Shown: positions 2,184 through 17,206 of the stretch, in pieces | Layout of the letters: each line of letters begins with the position of its first letter | How positions within the stretch are numbered: the stretch's first letter is position 1 | Assembly (NCBI GenBank): GCA_049315825.1 | Contig: JBMOJK010000017.1 | Coordinates: 1 to 21,697 of the forward strand | Source of the DNA: Patescibacteria group bacterium | GTDB lineage: Bacteria; Patescibacteriota; Gracilibacteria; BD1-5; UBA2023 | Length of the DNA stretch: 21,697 nucleotides | Reading direction: 5' to 3' | Notes under the pieces: generated by a model | The model's database searches: none | What the model saw: the letters and a program-made list of their open reading frames with translations, nothing else | Told to the model about the DNA's origin: nothing | Translations under genes and position numbers: made by a program

Positions 2184-2912
2184 ATGAATATCCTCATTGT
2201 CGAGGATGATGCATTCCTTGCCGGAAAAATCTGAAAAATATTCGAGTCAAAGGTCATTTCCAATCGAGTACGAGTAATTAACTCGTTTGCGCAATTCATG
2301 CGAGAATCAACAACGCTCGCATCCTATGATATCGTTTTGACAGATCTCAAATTACTCGATGCATCAAAGGAATTGTGTGGCTACAAAGTGATCCGTACCA
2401 TACGAGCACAAAAGCTTACTATCCCCATAGTAGTGATCAGTGGCATGAGCGATATAGATCGACTTCGTGAGGCATTTGACTATGGTGCGAGCGATTATCT
2501 CGTGAAGCCCGTCAGACTCAAAGAGCTTGAGTTGCGAGTTTCAAATTGGTACAAAAACTATCAGCTCTCTAAGCTCACTTCTGCCTGAAAAGGAAATATC
2601 TATCACTACAAAGATCTCAGCTATCATCTCGACAAGAACGAATTCTACTTCAAAGAAACCCACATCCCACTCACAAAAAACAACAAATACATCCTCTCGC
2701 TCTTCTTTACATCTCCCGAAAGTCTTCTCAAAGAATCTTTTCTCATAGAAAAGATCTGGTGAGACCTGTGTGTAAGTGTAGATCGAAACCTGCGCGTGAA
2801 TATTTTGAGATTAAAAAATTCCCTCACCCCATTCGGAATCGATGGATGGATCAGGAATGTTCGTGGCGAAGGATATGTATTTTCTGAGCGGGATGGGACT
2901 CGATTATTCTAG
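2184..2912 (+). CDS. OmpR-family response regulator (receiver plus winged-helix)
   Basis: ATG 2184 lies 16 nt after the kinase stop. In-frame TGA at 2232, 2586 and 2760; stop TAG 2910-2912. The receiver segment reads MNILIVEDD...DIVLTDLKL...VVISG...DYLVKP. The C-terminus LRVNILRLKNSL...VRGEGYVF is the typical OmpR winged-helix tail. Confidence 0.9.
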
Positions 2913-3566
2913 GATGTACCCCTGACCGTAGAGTGTTTTGGGTGAGAATTCTTTGCCGAGTTTTTTGCGCAGTTTTGAGAGGGTGACATTGATGGTATTG
3001 TCACTGATCATCTCGCTGTTCTGTCACCAAGCCTGTGTGATCATCTTTTCTCGACTAATGATACTCCCACGATTCATAAGAAATGTCTCGAACAAAAGAC
3101 TCTCTGTCTTCGTAAGATAGACTTCATGCTCGCCGATGCGAGCTTTTTTTGTGAGCTGATCGAAGATGATATCACCACACTTGATTTCTTTGCTTTCAAC
3201 AAAATTGTTCGGACGTCGGAACATCGCCTTGATGCGAGCAATCAACTCCTCTGGAATGAGGGGTTTGATGATATAGTCGTCTGCTCCGATATCCAGTCCA
3301 TAGATGATATTCTCGCTGTCGCCGTATCCTGACACCATGATGATGGGAACTTGAGACTGGTTATTCTTGCGAAGCCATTTGATGATATCAAATCCACTTC
3401 CGTCGCCGAGCGAGACGTCTACGATATAGAGCTGTGATTCTGCGTTTCCGTTACGCATGAAGTCCTCGTAGCCATAATACGCACTCGCGACGTACCCATT
3501 GCTCTCAAGCTTCTTAATAATTTTGCTTACAAGGAGTTTTTCGTCGTCGATGATTGATATATGCAT
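2904..3566 (-). CDS. OmpR-family response regulator; last gene of the long minus-strand operon
   Basis: Track ORF 3024..3566 continues through TGA (3024-3026) to TAA at 2904-2906. Receiver: MHISIIDDE...YIVDVSLGDGSG...IIMVSG...DYIIKP. Tail: INVTLSKLRKKLGKEF...LYGQGYILE. It overlaps the convergent gene 2184..2912 by 9 nt. Confidence 0.9.
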
Positions 3567-3630: not shown

Positions 3631-6003
3631 TTATGATTCATCGGGAAGAACCATGGGGAGCGAGAACGAGAAATTCGATCATTTTCAAGGCGTACTGGTT
3701 ACAACTATTTTCCCTCACATCTGTGTAACAATTTCTTGAGAAATGGCGAGTCAGAGTCCTGTTCCGGTGTGTGATCGAGTAAATACATTGTCGAGTTGGG
3801 AGAATTTTGAGAATATCTTCTTCATACCATCCTCCGATATCCCTATTCCGGTATCGATGACTTCGATCTTGAGTCGATGTGTGCGCGGTATGTGGGATGT
3901 TCGAATCGTAATCGTTCCGCCTGCTTGGGTGAATTTAAAGGCATTTCCGATGAGATTTACGAGCACTTGCTTGAGGAGATTGCGATCTGTGTGGACTATT
4001 CCATCCGTCTCGGCCTCCAGTATCAAATCAAGGCCGTGTGATTTTGATACATTCTCGTACTCGTATTGGAGTTCTGCGAGGAAGACTTGTATTGGTATGT
4101 CCACAGTATCGAACTCCATGCTACGGGATTCGAGTTTTGCGATGTTGAGCATGTCGTTGATGAGTTTGATGAGCCTGTTGCTCGAGTTCAGCATGACGCT
4201 GAGTGGCTTTTGCATCTTGGGTGTAATGCTTCCAAAATCTCCATCGAGTAGCATGGAAGTATACCCCTTGATAGAGGTCAATGGCGTGCGCAGTTCATGG
4301 GATGCAATGTTGATGAAGTCATCCTTGAGAGCATTGAGATCTTCGAGGTGCTTGCGTTCTTTTTCGAGGGAATGATATTCTCGCATATCCATCATCATCC
4401 CAACGCTTCCAGCGCTTCCGAGTGGTATTCCGGTCAGTCGCACGGGGATGATCTCACCGTTCTTAGCAAGGAGTTCTACTTCGTATTCAGATCGTTCTCA
4501 CTGTTGGCGAAGTGTGACGTGATGCTGTATTGCATTCCAGCTTTCTGGTGTAAAGAATTCAAATGATTTCTTCCCAATTGCTTCTTCTGGAGTGTATTGT
4601 GACAGCTCGGTGAACAGACGATTGACTGACATGGTCGTCTCATTGATGTCACCCATCCATATAGCAACCGTCGAATTATCAATGATATCCTTGTATGATT
4701 CGCTGTAGAGTTGGTGAGTAGTGCTGATTTCTTTGTCTTTGTTTTCGATATCGTACTGCAGTGCATGGTTTGCATCCTCGAGTTCTGTCGAGGTGACATT
4801 GACGAGATGGAGAAGTGCTTGGATTGTGTCGATGTATCGACGGTTTTTAGTAGATACAAAGGGTGTTTCAGACTGTGGAGTTTGCCTAATGTAACCAGGA
4901 TGCTCAGTAAGAGTAAGGACAGTCATGGTTTGGTTGAGAAATTCATTCCCGCAATTGCTATGAAAAAATTCCCCATATGTAAAAAAACCACTCGTTGGAG
5001 CAATGCTCTCCAGCGGCTGCATTTCTCGGGCGATGTGTTCTTGTAGAAATCTACGACGCGCCATACAAGAATACACAAAAAATGTCTCTACAGAACAACC
5101 CAGAAATCGTTCATAGATTTTGTGTGATGTATCGAGGATGAGTCTCGCATCTCCGAGTCCGAATTGAACAGTCTCTCACTCACGAATATTTCCTCCAAAA
5201 GTGAGCGATCCATCATCGTGTTTACTTAGCGGACCACGTGCGATCTTTTGGCCATTCTTGAGGATGATGAGTGGGAATTCGTTGCCGATAGCAGGAAGTC
5301 GCTCGGCTGTGTTATTGCCGAGGTATTTTCGATAGATATCTACCGTTGGGATTCCATCTATCTCGTATACGCGGTTACGCACGGATTTTGTGATGGTGAG
5401 TTTCTTTCCGATGCTCATCCAATCAAATGCATAATCTGTTATTGCGGTGATTTCTTTTCCATAAAGCCCCGCAGCCACTATCCCATTTTCGAGAAAAACT
5501 TCTTCAGTAAATACATAGGTTCCTGTAAATGTTCCGTTGTCTCCAGCGAGTCCTCAGGAAACTGTTACATCAGGAAGAATGCTTTCAAATCCTTGTAAAA
5601 GTTCCTCGCCATTTGTGAGAAGTCCCTCTGCAAATATGATCGCAACTTTGAGATCTTTTGCACTCAACGATCGAGCTATACGAGACCCATCTTGTGAGCT
5701 TTGGTCATGAGTGGATTTCGTGTATGTAGTACGTATGTGTGTATGTTCAAATACGCTAAATGTTATCAAAATGCTCGAGCTTTCAACATCCCCCCTTAGG
5801 ATTTCTCAGTCTGTTGTTGTTCCGAGTATTTTTGCGTTGGGAAGGGAAGTGATGAGGTGGGATCGAACGTCTTGGAGTATCGCTGGATCGAGTACACCAG
5901 AAAAAACCTGCACGAGTACATGTTTCTCGTTTTTGAGTCCGTGCTGTTCCTCGAATGCACTGAGTGCATCATGCGAAGAAAATACGTGAGAAATGGTATG
6001 CAT
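3631..6003 (-). CDS. FIST-PAS-HisKA-HATPase sensor histidine kinase (790 aa)
   Basis: Five track ORFs (5806..6003, 5554..5769, 5176..5478, 4498..5076, 3751..4443) share one frame, and every break between them is TGA (5806, 5554, 5176, 4498, 3751). Three more TGAs (3715, 3685, 3679) fall in the tail before TAA 3631-3633. FIST-type motifs: S[TGA]GLAGDNG, FSC..ARR-like YSCMARRRF, GFFTYGEFF. After a PAS-like segment come H-box ASHELRTPL, N-box LIGNAFKF, G1 DTGIGI and G2 GTGL[TGA]LAISQEIVTQM[TGA]GKI...P[TGA]K[TGA]SNFSF. Confidence 0.9.
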
Positions 6004-6011
6004 AAAACAAT

Positions 6012-6521
6012 CTAATGCTCAGGAGTTCCACGGCTGAGGTCTACTGTCACACGGATATTGTGCTGGCAGTTTGGACAATGAGATTCCACTACAAAACAGG
6101 TATTGTTCTGTGGATTTGGAAGAATGGCACAGTGCTCTGCGGTTTCATTGAGGCCAAGGAGCTCGCTGATGAGATCGAGTGCTTGTTTTGGGGTAGTATC
6201 AGCCTTTGTAAGGTAGGAATCTGCTCACATTTTCATGCATTCATCGATCTCAGCTTTGCTGTTGAGGTTAGAGAACATGATGATCTTGGTTTTGAGGGTA
6301 GGCGCAAGTCGGCGTATAGTAGAGAGCGTTTCAATTCCATCCATCGAAGGCATCATGATATCCATCAAGATTACATCAGGTGTAAACTCGGTAATATCTG
6401 TGATTGCTGTGATTCCGTTTGTACAGATTTCTACTTCAAATCCTGCGGCTTCGAACTTTGTTCTGTACATTGCTGAGAGTGCTTCGTCGTCCTCGACGAG
6501 CATGATCCTTTTCTTGTTCAT
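6012..6521 (-). CDS. Single-domain response regulator (receiver) with a Cys-containing C-terminal tail
   Basis: ATG 6521; TGA at 6225 falls in the canonical M[G]ADSYLTKA; stop TAG 6012-6014. Phospho-acceptor context VILMDIMMP. The tail reads HCAILPNPQNNTCFVVESHCPNCQHNIRVTV. The stop lies 8 nt before the FIST kinase start. Confidence 0.88.
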
Positions 6522-6548: not shown

Positions 6549-7040
6549 TTAGGAGGTGACTGATTCGATGTGTATTGTGGAAGCAAATTGTGTGCCGCAA
6601 CAGGGGCAGGTTATATTGCTATGTGGTTCTTTGATGGGCTTGTATTCAGTATTTGATTCACTCATAGTTATGAGATCATGCACGCGGGCGAATATTTTTC
6701 CTGGAGTGTTTTCAGCTTTGATGATATATCCGTCAGCTCAGAGACTCATGCACCGCTCTACATGCTCAGTTCCGCTGAGATTGCTAAATACAAGAATTTT
6801 AGTCTGTACCGATGGTGCAAGTTTTCGCATGACCCGAAGCGTTTCGAAGCCGTCCATCTGCGGCATCATGATATCCAGCAAGATAACACTCGGATGAAAA
6901 CCATCAAGCATCGTCACTGCTTCGAGTCCATTCGTGCAGGTGAGAACCTCGTATCCTTCACGGACAAATTTCTCACTATAGAGATCTAAGAGTACCTGCT
7001 GATCTTCTACGATCATAATCTTGTATTTTTGATCTGTCAT
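6549..7040 (-). CDS. Single-domain response regulator (receiver) with a CPCC tail; paralog of 6012..6521
   Basis: ATG 7040 (the track's TTG at 7052 is an alternative). TGA at 6738 falls in L[G]ADGYIIKA; stop TAA 6549-6551. Phospho-acceptor context VILLDIMMP. The tail NITCPCCGTQFASTIHIE aligns with the CPNC tail of the neighbouring gene. Confidence 0.88.
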
Positions 7041-7098: not shown

Positions 7099-9822
7099 TT
7101 AGCATTTTTTCCGGATTGCATCGGTATTTACCCAAGATGGTCGAATGTATGGACTATTGATGATATCTCTGATGGAAGTGCCGTCCATTTCGCGATAATC
7201 GAGGAGTGCCTTGGCATCAATGTGGCGGTATTTGATTAATTCATTAGGATTTTTTCCTAATTCGAGCATTTTTTCTTGAAAATCATTGATCATTGAATTT
7301 ATAGATGTTTCAAAGAAACCTTCAAAAAGTCATTCTAATTGACTTCCGGATTCGCCTGAAAGTATCTTGTCTCCAATCTGTAAGAATGTCAGTATTTCAG
7401 TTACATTCCACTCAAATACATCGTGATTTCGGAAGCTTGCTGCGATGAATCTACGCAAGAATGCTTCGTATTGGAAAAATGTAGTTGCTGCAGCTTCTTC
7501 GATTGGTACTACTACCATGCCATCCTGAACGTGCTCATGGAGTACATCTTCGGACATAAAAGGCGCGATCTCTATGAATGCTGATAGGAAAGTATTGGTC
7601 TTTGGATTATAAATCAATCGAGTACGAACCTTGTCAGGGAACTGCTTTGTGAGCTTGTGGAGTTCTTTGACGCGCGGTATGCCGGTGTATGATGCATGGA
7701 CTCATTCTTCGAGAAATGCTGCCCCTGGTGACGAAAAATTCGCAACAAAAGAGTGAAGATTGTTGTAGAAATCTTCCGATGAAAGATGCGAAGTCGACCG
7801 GATACCCAGCTGAAAATCTGCAAATCTTAAAAGCGGACTCGACGGATTGAATGAAGAAAAATCCGACACATAAATTCGCCCAAAGAACTTGTGAAAAAAT
7901 TTATGAAAGTCTCGTTTAATGAGATCGGTGAGAAGTTTTACGATCTCTCATGCGTGCAGGGTGATGTACTCTTGTGCTGCAGGATGAATATTCTCCATAT
8001 TCTCGTTTGAGAACATGAGTGTGTGGTCGAGGAACATCGAAGACTTTGCAACTGCCTTTGTTGGATCGAGAACCAGATGTTCAAGTGCGTACAGGAGTCG
8101 ACTATATACCGTCGGTATATTTATATTCTTGTAGATGAGAATCGTCTCTTGTACAAAAAGCATGAGTGCTTCGTCCGGAATGTGCTCCGTTTCTGGGAGT
8201 GTCTTGAGCGTATGATAAAGATCAAAATATACCGCATTTCCTACTCCGTATATAATCGTATCAGTGTGGTGCAATGCTTCATAGAGCTCACCCATGAGAG
8301 CTCCAATGCCAGGGCCAAGCTCACGAACAATATGGAGTCGATTTCCTTCTCGTGCACGCATATGAATACCATGTGTTCGGATGAGTTCGGCAATATTCTT
8401 AACGCCTGCAAGCTTCGATGACTCTAGATTTCATCGATCTACTTTCCAGTCGGGATAGATATTGAGTGCAAGGTTTCCGGAGTGATCGTATGCTTTGAGA
8501 ATATCAGGCGACTGATTATTGGGAAAGCTTTGCACGTGATTTCTTCTTTGTGCTTTATCGAGCAGGATGGCAGCCTGTTCTCATACGGATGCTTGAAGGT
8601 CTTGTATGGCAAAATTATACGCATCTGCCTTTTGTATATCAGTATTGCGTTCTTTGAGTCGATGAGCAAGTCTTACTTCGGATTCTGCTGATTCACGTAA
8701 ACTTCGTGCAAATGCGAGAAGTGCAAACGTAAAAAACTCCCGCCCGAGCCCCTTTGGATGATCTTCGCGCGGATCAAAGTGACGCAAAATATTGATGATA
8801 TCCTCGCTGTATCCAGCTACGAGTTTGAGCGTGAGGGGAGAGAGTTTTTCTTGGATTTCTGCTGCGTCTTTTTGGAGATCAAGCTCGAAATGTGGCTGTA
8901 TCGCGAGTATGCGACCGTTGCGTATTCCAGATGCAACAATCCCACCCGTGATGTCATCGGTCATCAGTGGGATGATCGATGGATGCGGACGCTTGTTGGT
9001 CGAAAGATCGATCGTTACAATATGACGTGTACGTGTTTGTGGAACTGAGAGTTTCACTGCTTCTCCTGGTCGACTATTTCCGCTAATTCCGCGGAAAATA
9101 TCCTGATAGATCTTTGGTGCAGTGGTGTCGATTTTGAGAGTAGTTGGAAAATACCCATACTGTGCAGGTCACTGAATTGCCATTGCGATGCGGGGGTCTT
9201 CAGCATTGGCCATTCCAATCAGATTCACTCAAACTTGTTGACTGAAACATATGAACATGTGTCTCACATTTCCTCCTTCGCCCGGTGCAGTTGCTGCGGC
9301 GCGTACACTCTGAGCAAAAGCTCCACGATAGTAGCTCGTTGGCACTTTGTCAGGATCTGATAAGCTTCCCCCAGATATGATGATCCCTTTATCTGGATAA
9401 TCATTCATCTCAGGAGTGGGATCTTCGTAGTTCACTCGCGTAACAGAGACATATTCCTCATATGTTTTTTGATCTCAGAATACGTCTATGAGCGCGCGCT
9501 CCAGCAGATCATTCGTAAAACAGCCGTCTCGTTGAAGTGAAATCGGCAATACACCGTTGTAGAGCTTCTTGAGATGTTCGAGTTCTTGGATGAGATCATG
9601 ACGCGCGAACTCTAGATTGAGATCTGTGCAGTGTCAGAGATTGTCAGGAAGGGGAGTGCCAATAAGTTCTACTTTTCAACTCATTCGTGAGCTTTTTTCC
9701 ACTGCTGCTGATACTGCGCCTTGGATAATAGGCGTCACTAAACCAAGCGTCCCTGCGTATTCCGGATCTGATGAGGGATTGCTTTTTCCGACAAAGGGAA
9801 ATATAGGAGGAACGGTCAGCAT
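7099..9822 (-). CDS. Large (907 aa) multidomain protein of unknown function. The N-terminal region has class-I glutamine-amidotransferase-like motifs, and there is a central GxGxG Rossmann/MTase-like motif.
   Basis: Track ORFs 9229..9435, 8581..9057, 7948..8361, 7330..7617 and 7099..7293 are all in one frame. I walked every gap codon by codon, and the only interruptions are TGA (9676, 9634, 9475, 9229, 9169, 8581, 8431, 7948, 7702, 7330). ATG 9820-9822 directly abuts the TAG (9823-9825) of the upstream kinase; stop TAA 7099-7101. GATase1-like motifs: GIIISGGSLSDPD, HMFICFSQQVGVNLIG (putative nucleophile Cys), AIQPHFE (His-Glu). Later comes HIVRELGPGIGALMGEL. The functional assignment is tentative. 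Confidence 0.8.
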
Positions 9823-10950
9823 CTATATTTTTCGTAAAGTATCGAGTGTAAATGAGAACTCACTTCCTTCGCCTACAGTGGATTTCACGTCTAACTTTCC
9901 TCCAGTTCGGGCTATAATGATGCTTGAAATATAGAGTCCAAGTCCCGTGCCTGCTGTGCTTTTTTGGAGATAATTATCTACCTGACCAAACTTTTCGAAG
10001 ATACTTTCGAGGTTCTTTTCTGGTATCCCGATCCCCGTGTCTCGAACGAATATGCGGACTCTATTTTGGGCTTCAACGGTTGCTCCGAGTGTGATTGTTC
10101 CACCCTTTGGAGTGAATTTGAATGCATTTCCAAGAAGATTGATGATCACTTGTTTGAGCTTCCCAGGGTCAGCGATGATGCGTGTATCGGCCGAAGGAGG
10201 GTCTATTTGGAAGACGAGTCATCTTCCTTCGGGGATTGGCTTCATAGTTTCTGCTATTTCGCAGAGCAGTTCTGAAACGCTGATGTCTTGTGGATTAAAT
10301 CGCATAGCTTCTGCATCGAGCTTCGCAACATCGAGCATGTCGCCAACGAGCGCGATAAGTCGCTCGGCTTCGTTGTAGGCAATCGTGATGTATCGCTGCG
10401 CGGTTGGAGTGAGTTCACCAACATCTCCATCGAGTACCATAGAGAGATACCCCTTGATACTCGTGAGCGGAGTTCGAAGTTCATGACCCATTACAGAGAC
10501 GAAGTCATCCTTCATACGATTGAGTCGATCGAGCTTTTCGGCATGTTCTCGGATCGCCTTAATCTCGCGAAGGTCGGTGATGATCCCGGCGGTTCCGCCA
10601 TTGCCAAGAGGAGTTCCACTGAGAAATACTGGGATAAGTTCGCCAGTCTTGCTCTTGAGCATTCATTTATACTTCGAAGATTCGCCTGCATTGCGAAGCT
10701 TGTTGTTATTGCGAACGGTATTTGCACTTTCCTCATCCCAGAAAATATACGACTCCAAACCTATGATCTCATCGAGTTCATAGCCCACCATTCTGCAGAA
10801 ATTCGGATTTGCATAAACGGTTCGTTCGTGCTCATCTCCGATCCAAATACTCTCCGACATCGCATCGAGTATTGGGCGATATCAGATCTTCTCAAGGAAT
10901 GCTTTGGATTCTCGATGATAATCGGCAAGGTTTTCAGCTGGACTCGACAT
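9823..10950 (-). CDS. Cytoplasmic PAS-HisKA-HATPase histidine kinase (375 aa); first gene of the operon
   Basis: Track ORFs 10663..10860, 10219..10662 and 9823..10149 share one frame and are joined by TGA (10882, 10663, 10219). ATG 10948-10950 is preceded by an in-frame TAA (10960-10962); stop TAG 9823-9825. No hydrophobic N-terminus. Motifs: H-box MGHELRTPL, N-box LLGNAFKF, G1 DTGIGI, G2 GTGLGLYIS. Confidence 0.9.
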
Positions 10951-11360: not shown

Positions 11361-12677
11361 ATGAAGATATTTTCTCGATTGATCGCTGTGTTTTTGATGT
11401 GAGCAATGCTGACTCAATCAGTCTGAGCGACATTTCCAGATGTTGAGCACTCATGGTATAAATCCTCGATCAATCATCTTGCAGACGCGGGAATTATTCG
11501 TGGGTATGACGATGGAAATTTTGGACCCGAATCACTCGTGACGCGTGCTGAAGTACTCAAGATGGTGATGAATATAGCAAAGATCGAAATCTCTCAGGGA
11601 TCATCGGCTCAGTGCTTCCCAGATGTGGATGTGACAGCATGGTACAGTCCGTATATCTGTACAGCAAATTCTCTCGGGATCGCGAAGGGTTTTAGCTCTG
11701 GGAAATTCTGACCAAACGAGACAGTAACCACTCTCGAAGCACTTACTTTTGGATTGCGAGCATTCAGACTTGCACCAGAGCAGAGTGGGGTTCATTGGTA
11801 CGATGCATATCAAAAGCTCGCGGACGACTTCAATATCATCAAGACACACGAATACACACTTTCTACCAAGATTTCTCGCGGGAAAACCGCAGAGCTCATC
11901 GAACGTATCGCAGCGTACAATGCTTCGAAAGCAAAGCTGGATTTCAAAAGCGCCGGATGCCGCACACCCGGTTCGCTTCTGAAACAAAATCTCATCAAGA
12001 TAAATGGAATCAACCGCGAATACAACCTCGCAGTTCCGAGTTCGTATTCCAAAACACAAACCTATCGACTCATCGTTGCTATCCATGGCCGAACCAATAC
12101 CAATGATATGGTTCAGGGTTATATGGGCTTGGACAGTTCTCGTCGAGGCATGCAAACCGACTCTATCGTCGCGTATCCTGCCGGGATATCTGTGAAGGGT
12201 GGATTTTCGTGGAGCGAATATTCCAATGTTCAATTCTTCGATGCGATGATCGATCAAATCGCGAGTAACTACTGTATCGACCGCAATCAAATAGATATCG
12301 TCGGACACTCGCTCGGTGGCTGGTTCGCTAACAAACTTGCCTGTTTGCGTGGTGATGTTATCCGAGGGGCGGTTGTAGTAGGTGGACCTTCGTACTCTGG
12401 AGAATGCACCGGACCAGTTGCTACCTTACTCATGCACAAAGCGGATGATGCACTTGTCCCGTATTCATGAGGGAAAGCTGCAGAAGTATTTCACAAATCA
12501 GTAAATCAATGCTCGGATAAATCTCACGATATCACCGTTGCATGATATGCAGGACGACAATGGGATGGCTGCACACCAGGCAATCCAGTTCTGTGGTTCG
12601 AGAAATACACCACCTTCCAAAACGATCCCCACAGCTGGCCGAAGTCAGGTGGAGCTGCGGTGTTGGAGTTTTTTAGG
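11361..12677 (+). CDS. Secreted esterase with two SLH domains (PHB-depolymerase / LpqC-type alpha/beta hydrolase)
   Basis: ATG 11361. In-frame TGA at 11400, 11424, 11709, 12468 and 12543; stop TAG 12675-12677. It absorbs track ORF 11754..12470. Signal-peptide-like MKIFSRLIAVFLMGAMLTQSVGA. Two SLH repeats: FPDVEHSWYKSSINHLADAGIIRGYDDGNFGPESLVTRAE and FPDVDVTAWYSPYICTANSLGIAKGFSSGKF. Esterase core: REYNLAVPSSY...RLIVAIHG and nucleophile elbow GHSLGG. Confidence 0.88.
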
Positions 12678-12829
12678 GGGTTGTAGAGGGGTAACTAAGA
12701 AACTACAAAGAGTGAAGTTCGGATAAGGAAGTAGTGGGGATAGCTCGGTATACTAGGATTCTCTATGTATTATCGTAAGTAACGCATAGAAGTTGTCGAC
12801 CAACTTTTCAATTATCAAGATGGTAATCA

Positions 12830-15235: not shown

Positions 15236-16084
15236 CTATAAACTGACCTGTTTTTTGTTCTTTTTGTACACGAATGTTATAAAACCTTCGATACAGGATC
15301 AATTACCAAAATGACTACAGCTCTCACATAATCACGGAAGATAAACCTGTTCTATATGCTTAACCGTAAATTCTTTATTTGAGGGCGTTTCATAAATAAA
15401 TCGAGTACTGGATGTTCAGGGGGTGTGTATAGTGCTTTTTAATCTAGCATTATAAATTGATAGCAATCTTCTAATAGCTTCCGCTGAATTTGTTTTGTTT
15501 AATAGGTCATCCAATATACGAGTTTCAACTCATTTTGATAAAGCCCAATCAAGGACCTCTTGAACACGTCCTATATCTTCAGTATCGGATAATACACAGT
15601 TTACTCTCACCTTAACGCCCGCTTGTTGCAATGAGGATATATTTTCTTTGGCTTGTATGATTTGTTCAGATGCCCATTCGCGTGACTTTCTTTTTGCCAT
15701 CATTCCTTGTAGGAATTCAGGATTTACGGATTGTAATGAAAAGTTGATAGCATCTACTCAAGCATCAATCAAATTTGAACGAATATCCCCATTAAACTGT
15801 CCATTACTTGTAACTTTTACAACCATCCCCAATTTTTTGGATCATTCTACAATTGAAGAGATGTGTTTATTTAAAGTAGGTTCTCATCCAGTAAGATGTA
15901 ATTCGGTTACGCCAAGTTCATCTCGAAGTCTTGATAATGCAGATTTCAACTCGGAATCCCATTTTAAAATTCCAGCGTCAATATCTCATTCATTGTGACA
16001 AAACTTACAAGACCAATTACAGGACTCTGTAATTTTTAGACGTACTGTTCATACATCTTCTATTTTTGAGAACTTGCTTGTCAT
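15236..16084 (-). CDS. Radical SAM enzyme, MoaA-like (282 aa)
   Basis: This gene is invisible in the standard-code track because it contains nine in-frame TGAs. It runs from ATG 16082-16084 to TAG 15236-15238. Motifs: CxxxCxxC as ITESCNWSCKFCHNEG (15998-16021); LHLTG[TGA]EPTL (TGA at 15884-15886); VTSNG; INFSLQSVNPEF; VKVRVNCVLSD; C-terminal Cys cluster LCESCSHFGNGSC. The order and wording of motifs resemble MoaA (GTP 3',8-cyclase) more than viperin. Confidence 0.82.
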
Positions 16085-16641
16085 TGAGGCGGTTCTTTAA
16101 AACTAATGATAGGCATTTTAATTAAAACAATTGCTGGAATGCCTAATTCCTTTTCATAAACTACTTCGGATCAACCAAATAATCCATCGTCAAAATTGAA
16201 TCCAAGTTTTTCAGTGTAGTTTTTAACGATCTCTGGATCCTGTCCTTCGATTTCTATGTATGGATTGAGTCCAGGCCAGGTGTCGATACATACTTCAATG
16301 TCAGCATTTTTCCAAACTTCACGATAATTCTCCTGTGTTGAAGTATTTCTCAATCCAGTTTTCATTAAGATATCAGAAGCTTCATTAAAATCCGATATCT
16401 CCGTTTCGTGTTCTTCAACTCCATCAATGTTTGAACTATGGATACACTTATAGGTCATAGTGGTTCGTTTAGCCTCCTTTCTCACTCGAAAAAATTCATT
16501 CTTACTGGTTTCTATCGGATGGAATGTTTTTCTTTGTATTAAAAATTCTTCTTGAACACAGGAAAGTCCGATAGAAGCGAGTTTCTCCCGTATAATGTCT
16601 TTGTTCACAGAAGTGAACTTTATTTCAAATTCTTTCGCCAT
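16060..16641 (-). CDS. CYTH-domain protein (CyaB-type class IV adenylate cyclase / triphosphate tunnel metalloenzyme family)
   Basis: Track ORF 16171..16641 begins MAKEFEIKF, which carries the CYTH ExExK signature. Later come RVRKE, TYK and IDTWPGLNPYIEIEG. It reads through TGA at 16171 and 16081 to TAG 16060-16062. The extension (GSEVVYEKELGI) supplies the usual C-terminal sY.ell strand. It overlaps the radical SAM start by 25 nt in a different frame. Confidence 0.8.
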
Positions 16642-16654
16642 AGTCTTTTAATTA

Positions 16655-17206
16655 TTAAGCATATAAAAAAGAGCTTGCCGCCCGCAAAGCTTGCTCAACA
16701 TTGCATTCATCTGTTGAAATAATCAAGTCGTTTCTTCTTAAAAGAAACCTATTCTGTGTTTTCACAAAAAGATTGGCATCTTGTTCAAATCTAGAAAGAT
16801 TTCCTCTTTGCGAGAGTCGTGTAATGATTGTATTTCTGGTGGCTTTAAGAAGAATTTGAACTTTTGGTATCTCCTTATCGAGAGCTTCTGCTTCTGATAC
16901 ATCCAATTGTTCATCCATTGATTGATGATGAACACTTGTTGATGTAACAAGTCGATCACAAATGACATCTGTTCCATTTTTTGCAATTTCTAATATTTGA
17001 GCTATATCTTCACGACAAGCTTCTAGATAAAAATGAAATCTTTCAGTCACTGATACTCAAACCTGATCAAATTTTCTTCTTTGCTCTGGAGTTTTAGTTC
17101 CTGGAGTTTTGTAGTAAATAGCCTTATGATTTTGGGGTAACCCCTTTGCAAGAGTGGTTTTTCAGGCGGCATCGACTCACTCGATCGCTATAATACGTCG
17201 TTGCAT
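16655..17206 (-). CDS. P-loop nucleotide kinase, thymidylate-kinase-like (183 aa)
   Basis: Track ORF 16655..17050 extends upstream through TGA 17057, 17162 and 17177 to ATG 17204-17206. Both Walker A glycines are TGA codons: IIAIE[TGA]VDAA[TGA]KTT. TMK-like motifs FYLEACRED and VICDRLVTSTSVHH are present. Stop TAA 16655-16657. Confidence 0.82.

Follow-up and report, generated by a model that had tools for sequence, protein, structure and literature searches.

The minus strand of a stretch of Gracilibacteria DNA raises the question of what a protein of 907 residues does among the histidine kinases that surround its gene. The stretch, hereafter the window, is 21,697 nucleotides long (positions 1 to 21,697 of contig JBMOJK010000017.1, assembly GCA_049315825.1, from a Patescibacteria group bacterium), and the gene lies at 7099–9822. 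An initial annotation, made from the sequence alone, had proposed that one gene was hidden here by ten TGAs, that its product was an orphan resembling class-I glutamine amidotransferases (GATases) in its N-terminal part, and that it could tie this chemistry to signalling. We find that the gene is single and functional, that its product belongs to an uncharacterised family so far found only in TGA-recoded candidate-phylum bacteria, and that the comparison of family members supports a GATase-type domain with a conserved Cys-His-Glu triad. We favour, with some reserve, an enzyme in which this domain would be joined to a methyltransferase-like domain and tied to PAS and FIST kinases.

A single gene read with TGA as glycine

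With TGA read as glycine, 7099–9822 translates on the minus strand without interruption from an ATG at 9822–9820 to a TAA at 7101–7099, giving 907 codons with no internal TAA or TAG and ten in-frame TGAs, at residues 49, 63, 116, 198, 218, 414, 464, 625, 707, and 831. The initial annotation was therefore correct in seeing a single hidden gene. By our own arithmetic, taking ~4.5% TAA plus TAG per random codon at this base composition, the chance of 907 consecutive open codons is ~1e-18. Under translation table 11, the same region splits into fragments of which the longest has 158 residues, and all long open reading frames (ORFs) of the window likewise depend on TGA being a sense codon.

The amino acid that TGA encodes is visible at conserved glycine positions in several neighbouring genes. 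For example, a thymidylate-kinase-like protein has TGA for each of its two P-loop glycines (IAIE[TGA]VDAA[TGA]KTT), and two histidine kinases have it for the glycine of the G2 box (GTGL[TGA]L and GLGM[TGA]L). Two response regulators use TGA for the glycine of their G-A-D-x-Y receiver motif ([TGA]AD.Y), and a radical-SAM (S-adenosylmethionine) protein uses it for the GGEP glycine (TG[TGA]EP). Within the 907-residue gene itself, TGA and GGA are exchanged between orthologs at residues 198 and 248. TGA is glycine in the source genome, that is, code 25, which is in use by Gracilibacteria and Absconditabacteria. Code 4, in which TGA is tryptophan, was rejected for the window because TGA occupies these conserved glycine positions.

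Two related contigs from public read assemblies, L001 and L002, carry orthologs that are 96% and 82% identical in amino acid sequence, colinear with the gene, and free of indels. The ratio of nonsynonymous to synonymous substitution rates (dN/dS) is 0.071 against L001 and 0.068 against L002 (dS 1.6), and across five segments of the gene it ranges from 0.03 to 0.13. Low dN/dS throughout, together with the lack of indels, indicates that the whole length is one coding unit under purifying selection. A frameshift, or a series of several genes, at 7099–9822 was rejected on the strength of these orthologs, and the region is a single functional gene.

The protein family and its amidotransferase-type domain

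Relatives of the protein were hard to find. The recoded 907-residue sequence had no match in Pfam, NCBIfam, PDB sequences (phmmer), PADLOC, or a word-indexed search of 5.8 billion proteins, and scanning GTDB genomes and JGI metagenomes for peptide patterns turned up no relatives. No contig matched in an exact look-up of two of its table-11 fragments, and family-profile queries of the word-indexed protein search returned near-identical fragments only. With the longest TGA-free fragment (residues 219–413) as query, an exhaustive HMMER search of 1.84 billion cluster representatives recovered 11 proteins. Of these, seven are 844–910 residues long and matched at an equal relative position, and these long homologs align with the window protein end to end at 26–32% identity. 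The protein is no orphan, as it had been called, but one member of a family whose entries at NCBI are labelled “hypothetical protein”, as in MEF2175002.1 (Candidatus Absconditabacteria) and MFA5917895.1 (Candidatus Gracilibacteria).

All members examined come from TGA-recoded genomes of either Gracilibacteria or Absconditabacteria. Each locus examined has 16–44 in-frame TGAs and zero TAA or TAG, and the guanine-plus-cytosine (GC) content of the homolog loci is 19–28%, compared with 43% in the window clade. From these sequence comparisons, the 907-residue protein is a member of an uncharacterised family that is so far confined to TGA-recoded candidate-phylum bacteria. In our literature searches, we found no paper describing this architecture, its restriction to recoded genomes, or its linkage to kinases.

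Some of the difficulty in recognising the family lies in the databases. The family entries translated with code 4 (P0005–P0010 and P0015–P0019) carry tryptophan in place of glycine at 20–45 positions per protein, including the glycines of the catalytic motifs (for example, “ILWWS” and “WVCFWQQ”), so that canonical GATase motifs are masked in these homologs. Four homologs were translated anew from their DNA, and in the remaining ones each W was replaced by G; Pfam GATase matches then rose from three of 11 members to six of 10 (PF00117, best E 6.1e-9).

The GATase-type domain covers approximately residues 92–350 (8773–9549, minus strand), a wider span than the 140–340 first proposed, and was delimited with PF00117, hhalign, and Foldseek. 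The motifs quoted in the initial annotation were all found, GIIISGGSLSDPD at residue 146, FICFSQQVG at 190, QPHFE at 309, and VRELGPGIG at 499. Across lineages that are ~28% identical, the invariant residues of the N-terminal domain are G151-G152-S153 (9364–9372), C192 and Q196 in the nucleophile elbow FICFSQQ (residues 190–196; 9235–9255), and Q309, H311, and E313 in QPHFE (residues 309–313; 8884–8898). In alignments, the GGP loop of solved GATases falls on G151-G152-S153, which we infer to form the oxyanion-hole loop. A PP-loop ATPase had been considered for the “SGGSLSD” stretch and was rejected, as the stretch aligns with the GATase GG loop. The corrected family consensus reads D.CFTN, IILGGS..D, N.r.lG[IV]CFGQQ, FTRTGH, IPL..D, and NG.iLGvQFHPE. 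The window protein has F190 and S194 where G-[IV]-C-F-G-x-Q has its two elbow glycines, and the L002 ortholog retains G190, encoded by TGA. The dN/dS of the domain is 0.057.

Profile comparisons place the family among known GATases. A local hidden Markov model (HMM), built from five solved COG0518-type GATases with sequences taken from PDB alignments, matches nine of the 11 members (E 2e-10 to 2e-6). The family profile aligns with solved GATases at an hhalign probability of 94.5% (E 8e-8), compared with at most 0.3% for reversed, linker, and C-terminal control profiles. The extended alignment pairs GIIISGG with LVVLGGP, FICFSQQ with GICLGAQ, YGYFP with EIGFSP, and AIQPHFE with GLQFHLE (window first, GATase second); C192 and Q196 fall on the catalytic Cys and the Gln of 9xfs, and H311 and E313 on the catalytic His and Glu (QFHLE of 9xfs, QFHPE of 1wl8). 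A search of the PDB with the family profile gave 22 matches at E ≤ 5, of which 20, the top six among them, are class-I GATases.

Structure prediction agrees. We modelled with AlphaFold the homolog P0011, which is 28% identical to the window protein, from a 20-row alignment that included window fragments. The whole-chain model has a mean local confidence (pLDDT) of 82.4 and a predicted template-modelling score (pTM) of 0.83. All 50 of its best Foldseek matches in the PDB are GATase1 or GATase1-like folds, among them aminodeoxychorismate synthase, MetA, TrpG, and the glutaminase domains of CTP, GMP, carbamoyl-phosphate, and FGAM synthases, with E down to 8.7e-7 and template-modelling (TM) scores to target of up to 0.69. 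The proposal of a class-I GATase-like domain with FICFSQQ as elbow and QPHFE as His-Glu is thus borne out through relatives only: the predicted fold of a homolog and the profile matches of the family agree with it, and the window protein by itself has no match. Judged on that sequence in isolation, the initial annotation's own criterion for refutation, the lack of a significant GATase1 match, would wrongly have told against the domain. Taken together, the alignments and the model support residues 92–350 as a class-I GATase-type domain with a conserved Cys192-His311-Glu313 triad.

Within this superfamily, the best sequence-profile matches are COG0518-type GATases and gamma-glutamyl peptidases (9xfs, 1o1y (TM1158), 3l7n, 3m3p, and GGP1 9k7i) and the GuaA subunit (1wl8, 2d7j). 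These share with the family the fold, the GG loop, the G-x-C-x-G-x-Q elbow, and the order of elements ending in Q-F-H-x-E. However, they are single-domain proteins or subunits of ~190–260 residues, whereas here the domain sits inside a chain of ~900 residues, with an extra N-terminal extension and about 550 further residues. The invariant motifs DxCFTN, FTRTGH, and IPLxxD are found in the family only, and the window copy, unlike the COG0518-type enzymes, lacks both elbow glycines. The best structural matches are to TrpG/PabA-type glutaminase domains (1qdl_B, 1i1q_B, and 8hx8; E 8.7e-7, TM to target 0.68–0.69). We take the strand-1 motif D-x-C-F-T-N of the family to recall D-S-F-T-x-N of TrpG/PabA, yet the chorismate-utilising partner domain of those enzymes is absent from the family, and sequence identity is just 12–17%.

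The C-terminal half and the flanking kinases

Around the GATase-type domain, the chain has four further parts, all on the minus strand. A mostly helical N-terminal extension (residues 1–90; 9553–9822), placed by alignments and by mapping the secondary structure of the homolog model onto the window protein, carries the conserved motifs NPS and LP.N. A long helical linker (residues 359–447; 8482–8748), delimited from the homolog model and dN/dS, is the least constrained segment (dN/dS 0.13) and is in part modelled with low confidence. It is followed by a Rossmann-type domain resembling class-I SAM methyltransferases (residues 465–773; 7504–8430), as judged from the model, Foldseek, and sub-threshold Pfam matches, and by a helical bundle at the C-terminus (residues 774–907; 7102–7503; homolog model) in which F783, E786, F788, and R790 are invariant. 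The pTM of the whole-chain model suggests that the domains pack as one unit.

The resemblance to methyltransferases centres on a glycine loop. HIVRELGPGIG (residues 497–507; 8302–8334) is predicted to be a strand followed by a loop, with the family consensus Y.FRD.GAG.G, and resembles methyltransferase motif I. In the window, RELGPGIG occupies residues 500–507 where the family has RD.GAG.G, and G503, G505, and G507 are invariant. A motif of the form D/E-x-G-x-G-x-G is present after strand 1, and the strand precedes the loop in the homolog model. The GxGxG motif that had been pointed out earlier as VRELGPGIG is indeed there, and we reinterpret it as motif I of a methyltransferase-like domain. 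The most conserved C-terminal motif, DFQLGIRSTSH (residues 669–679; 7786–7818; Q671, R675, T677, and H679 invariant), would sit at the strand and loop that carry catalytic residues in class-I methyltransferases. Further invariant residues are R463, Y525-G526, S711, and P716-R717. The C-terminal half has an invariant polar cluster made up of Q671, R675, T677, H679, S711, R717, E786, and R790. After strand 2 of the Rossmann-type domain there is a helical insertion of ~105 residues (535–641).

Modelled separately, homolog residues 445–910 gave a pLDDT of 87.3 and a pTM of 0.87, and the order of strands and helices follows the methyltransferase pattern. All 50 top Foldseek matches are proteins of the class-I SAM-methyltransferase fold, with spermidine synthase, KijD1, precorrin-6Y methyltransferase, and AviRa as structural neighbours. 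Sub-threshold Pfam matches fall at the motif-I position (PF07757 at E 9e-4 and 0.18, PF23525 at 0.011, and PF13847 at 0.31), and the family has in common with these methyltransferases a strand followed by the D/E-x-G-x-G-x-G loop. It differs from them in its ~105-residue insertion, in its invariant DFQxxIRSTSH, and in the lack of any significant sequence or structure score. Searching the PDB with a profile of the C-terminal alignment gave no matches, and Pfam and the C-terminal Foldseek search gave no ATP-grasp, PP-loop, or P-loop signature in the family and no known synthase family. The C-terminal half had been described as matching no recognisable family. This stands insofar as no match is significant; on the other hand, the region is conserved family-wide, and the models point to what is probably a very divergent methyltransferase-like Rossmann domain, with cofactor binding predicted.

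The gene is embedded in a cluster of signalling genes on the minus strand. Upstream is a histidine kinase of PAS-HisKA-HATPase architecture (9823–10950), the TAG stop of which abuts the ATG of the 907-residue gene. Downstream by 58 nucleotides is a receiver-only response regulator (6549–7040), followed by a second one (6012–6521), by a FIST-FIST_C-PAS-HisKA-HATPase histidine kinase (3631–6003) with a start that overlaps the preceding stop, and by an OmpR-type response regulator (2904–3566), which is the last gene of the same-strand cluster. L001 and L002 share with the window the order PAS kinase, 907-residue gene, two receiver-only regulators, and FIST kinase.

Related kinases also turn up next to the gene in more distant family members. 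In L004, a PAS-PAS kinase lies upstream, overlapping the start of the homolog gene, and its PAS domains are 58% identical to those of the window PAS kinase. In L008, a FIST kinase lies 5 bp downstream and is 40% identical over 787 residues to the window FIST kinase. In L011, a kinase ~160 bp downstream is 45% identical to the window PAS kinase. The flanking kinases are 40–58% identical to one another, compared with 24–29% to an unrelated membrane kinase at 68–2167 of the window. Related PAS/FIST kinases thus adjoin the gene in four of seven lineages (the window clade, L004, L008, and L011), and this recurrence supports a co-inherited enzyme-kinase module. The link to signalling that the initial annotation had offered is supported by the same conserved adjacency.

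Two observations concern the other genes of this cluster. The FIST-PAS kinase (3631–6003) and the PAS kinase (9823–10950) are paralogs, 44% identical over PAS, HisKA, and HATPase, so that the operon has a pair of related kinases, with the FIST sensor as the main difference between them. In addition, each of the two receiver-only regulators (6549–7040 and 6012–6521) has a C-terminal tail of ~50 residues with clustered cysteines (…TCPCCGTQF… and …CFVVESHCPNCQH…). No Pfam domain besides the receiver was detected in them, and the cysteine tails may be a small metal-binding output module.

Possible functions and their meaning

The account that we hold to be the most probable, with moderate confidence, is that of an enzyme in which a GATase-type triad domain and a methyltransferase-like Rossmann domain act together and which is tied to PAS/FIST kinases. 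Cys192 would attack an amide group, that of glutamine or else of some gamma-glutamyl compound or other amide, giving a thioester with the release of ammonia or an amine. The C-terminal domain would bind a nucleotide-type cofactor, most likely SAM, and would either carry out a second step on the same substrate or receive the ammonia. The gene would be co-transcribed with the PAS and FIST histidine kinases, and the enzyme would most likely make, destroy, or modify a small molecule that they sense, or would be their dedicated output. The proposed link between enzyme and kinases follows from the shared operon and from the related kinases that flank homologs. What we infer is the catalytic activity, the nature of cofactor and substrate, and which way the link to the kinases runs. 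A partial parallel is found in GMP, CTP, and FGAM synthases, in which a glutaminase is covalently joined to a second catalytic domain, as we propose for the family. The pTM of 0.83 is suggestive of a fixed arrangement of domains like that of these fused amidotransferases. Their acceptor domains, however, are ATP-using synthetases, whereas the second domain of the family resembles the methyltransferase fold.

Several observations weigh against this account. The window protein alone has no Pfam match even at E ≤ 10 and none in NCBIfam or the PDB, the local GATase HMM does not match it with all filters off, and hhalign against GATases gives 0.2% for the window sequence by itself and 0.8% for the window clade. 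The window clade is too diverged to score, so the GATase homology is shown transitively, through full-length relatives, and both structural models represent a 28%-identical homolog and not the window protein. With F190 and S194 at the nucleophile elbow, activity could be reduced. For the C-terminal half, the Foldseek scores are weak (best E 0.097, TM ≤ 0.43), and the matches to the three methyltransferase Pfam families, in three members, are all below the gathering score. An hhalign comparison of the C-terminal profile with a five-sequence Methyltransf_11-type profile gave 10.9%, out of register. After strand 2, the family has YGVGD where the window and L002 have YGVGN, with N529 in place of D; from the order of strands, this would be the acidic site, at the end of strand 2, that binds the ribose hydroxyls of the cofactor. 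We know of no amidotransferase with a methyltransferase-fold acceptor domain. As for the kinases, no adjacent kinase was found in three of the seven lineages (L005, L006, and L009). L005 and L006/L007 carry a gene for a TrmB-like regulator downstream, on the same strand as the homolog (L005 5405–6142, L006 8656–9402, and L007 2892–3638), which suggests an alternative regulatory partner in kinase-free lineages; beside the L009 homolog, there is neither a kinase nor a TrmB-like regulator, and the L010 locus ends at the homolog gene.

Other explanations share part of this evidence. If the GATase-like domain merely bound glutamine or a related amino acid and regulated the kinases allosterically, the degraded elbow of the window clade, with F190 and S194 and undetected by GATase profiles, would fit, and so would the adjacent FIST and PAS sensors, which point to a role in signalling; DJ-1/GATase1-like domains have a ligand-type role in some AraC-type regulators. 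Binding alone would not require the full triad, however, and the domain evolves at a dN/dS of 0.057, with the Cys, His, and Glu, the substrate-binding Gln, and the Gly-Gly loop invariant across lineages ~28% identical, while the C-terminal half has an invariant polar cluster of its own. We therefore consider a pure ligand sensor unlikely. Also unlikely, in our view, is a housekeeping amidotransferase-methyltransferase of TGA-recoded lineages, biosynthetic or RNA-modifying (for example, acting on a transfer RNA nucleoside or a cell-envelope precursor), to which the kinases would be incidental. All genomes in which the family was found have in-frame TGA, a large protein is kept under strong constraint in bacteria with small genomes, the weak structural matches include the tRNA/rRNA methyltransferases MnmM, TrmR, AviRa, and METTL6, and three lineages have the gene without an adjacent kinase. 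Yet the gene has related kinases as neighbours in four lineages even though gene order has been rearranged, no domain for RNA binding was detected, and the lineage restriction may reflect the status of Gracilibacteria and Absconditabacteria as sister groups.

In chemotaxis, CheD and CheB deamidate receptors and CheR methylates them, and the enzyme could by analogy modify the kinases themselves, with its Cys-His-Glu domain deamidating glutamine side chains, and its methyltransferase-like domain methylating the glutamates so formed or other residues, on the neighbouring PAS/FIST kinases or the response regulators. The conserved, tight coupling to kinases (in the window the kinase stop codon touches the start of the gene, and in L004 the two genes overlap), the union of an amidohydrolase-type triad with a methyltransferase-like fold, and the two CheY-like receiver-only regulators of the operon are all consistent with such an adaptation enzyme. 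Glutamine amidotransferases that act as protein deamidases are listed in a review (PMC7605207). What the family has in common with CheR, CheD, and CheB is nevertheless the concept alone, amide hydrolysis and methylation near histidine kinases and CheY-like regulators. No homology to them appeared among the Pfam, PDB-sequence, or Foldseek results, whether in sequence or in fold, and the window, in contrast to chemotaxis systems, has no chemoreceptor gene. Some family members have no kinase nearby, and by sequence the N-terminal domain is closest to enzymes that act on small molecules, namely gamma-glutamyl peptidase and the GMP synthase subunit. No known methylation helices are apparent in the kinases, although no search was aimed at them. 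An enzyme that modifies the kinases thus seems distinctly improbable. Lastly, the motifs could be chance matches, or several genes could have been joined by misread stops, as the window protein alone has no database match and its three motifs are each degenerate. Against this stand a full-length colinear family, homologs with canonical motifs that have Pfam, hhalign, and Foldseek support, the established reading of TGA as Gly, the zero TAA or TAG in 907 codons, and the lack of ortholog indels. The evidence from family, code, and orthologs refutes this explanation, to which we give hardly any credence.

Elsewhere in the window, three adjacent minus-strand genes at 15236–17206 look like an anti-phage cluster of prokaryotic viperin plus kinase, supplemented by a CYTH gene. 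Their products are a radical-SAM protein (15236–16084; PADLOC pVip models at 5.9e-22 and 2.6e-19, covering the first ~150 of 257 profile positions only), a CYTH-domain protein (16060–16641), and a thymidylate-kinase-like protein (16655–17206; PADLOC VakA at 7.6e-11 and PDC-M51B at 2.2e-18). The cluster lies in a GC-poor island at ~12.7–18.5 kb, where GC is 0.32–0.38 compared with 0.40–0.47 elsewhere. On the plus strand, 11361–12686 encodes, with five TGA codons for Gly, a protein that looks secreted; its two S-layer-homology repeats precede an esterase-like alpha/beta-hydrolase domain. Scans of the window for promoters and terminators gave the same counts as shuffled sequence, and no tRNA genes were found in the window.

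The 907-residue gene illustrates how TGA-recoded genes are lost to standard annotation, being itself fragmented, while half of its public homologs are mistranslated with Trp for Gly. What emerges is a conserved family of ~900 residues under strong purifying selection in host-dependent bacteria with small genomes. To our knowledge, no characterised enzyme combines a glutaminase triad with a methyltransferase-like fold, and we rate the family as a novel arrangement of domains with known folds; its glutaminase domain belongs, as a divergent member, to a well-known superfamily. The recurrent pairing with PAS/FIST kinases offers a handle on the ligands of FIST sensors and on nitrogen or amino-acid sensing in these bacteria. 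We see a limited chance that the family is a new, dedicated enzymatic partner of PAS/FIST kinases in TGA-recoded bacteria, one that synthesises or destroys an amide-bearing signal or tunes the kinases by deamidation and methylation. If this were true, the FIST domain would gain a defined ligand pathway, and in the first of these cases enzyme and kinase would form a synthase-sensor pair as in quorum sensing.

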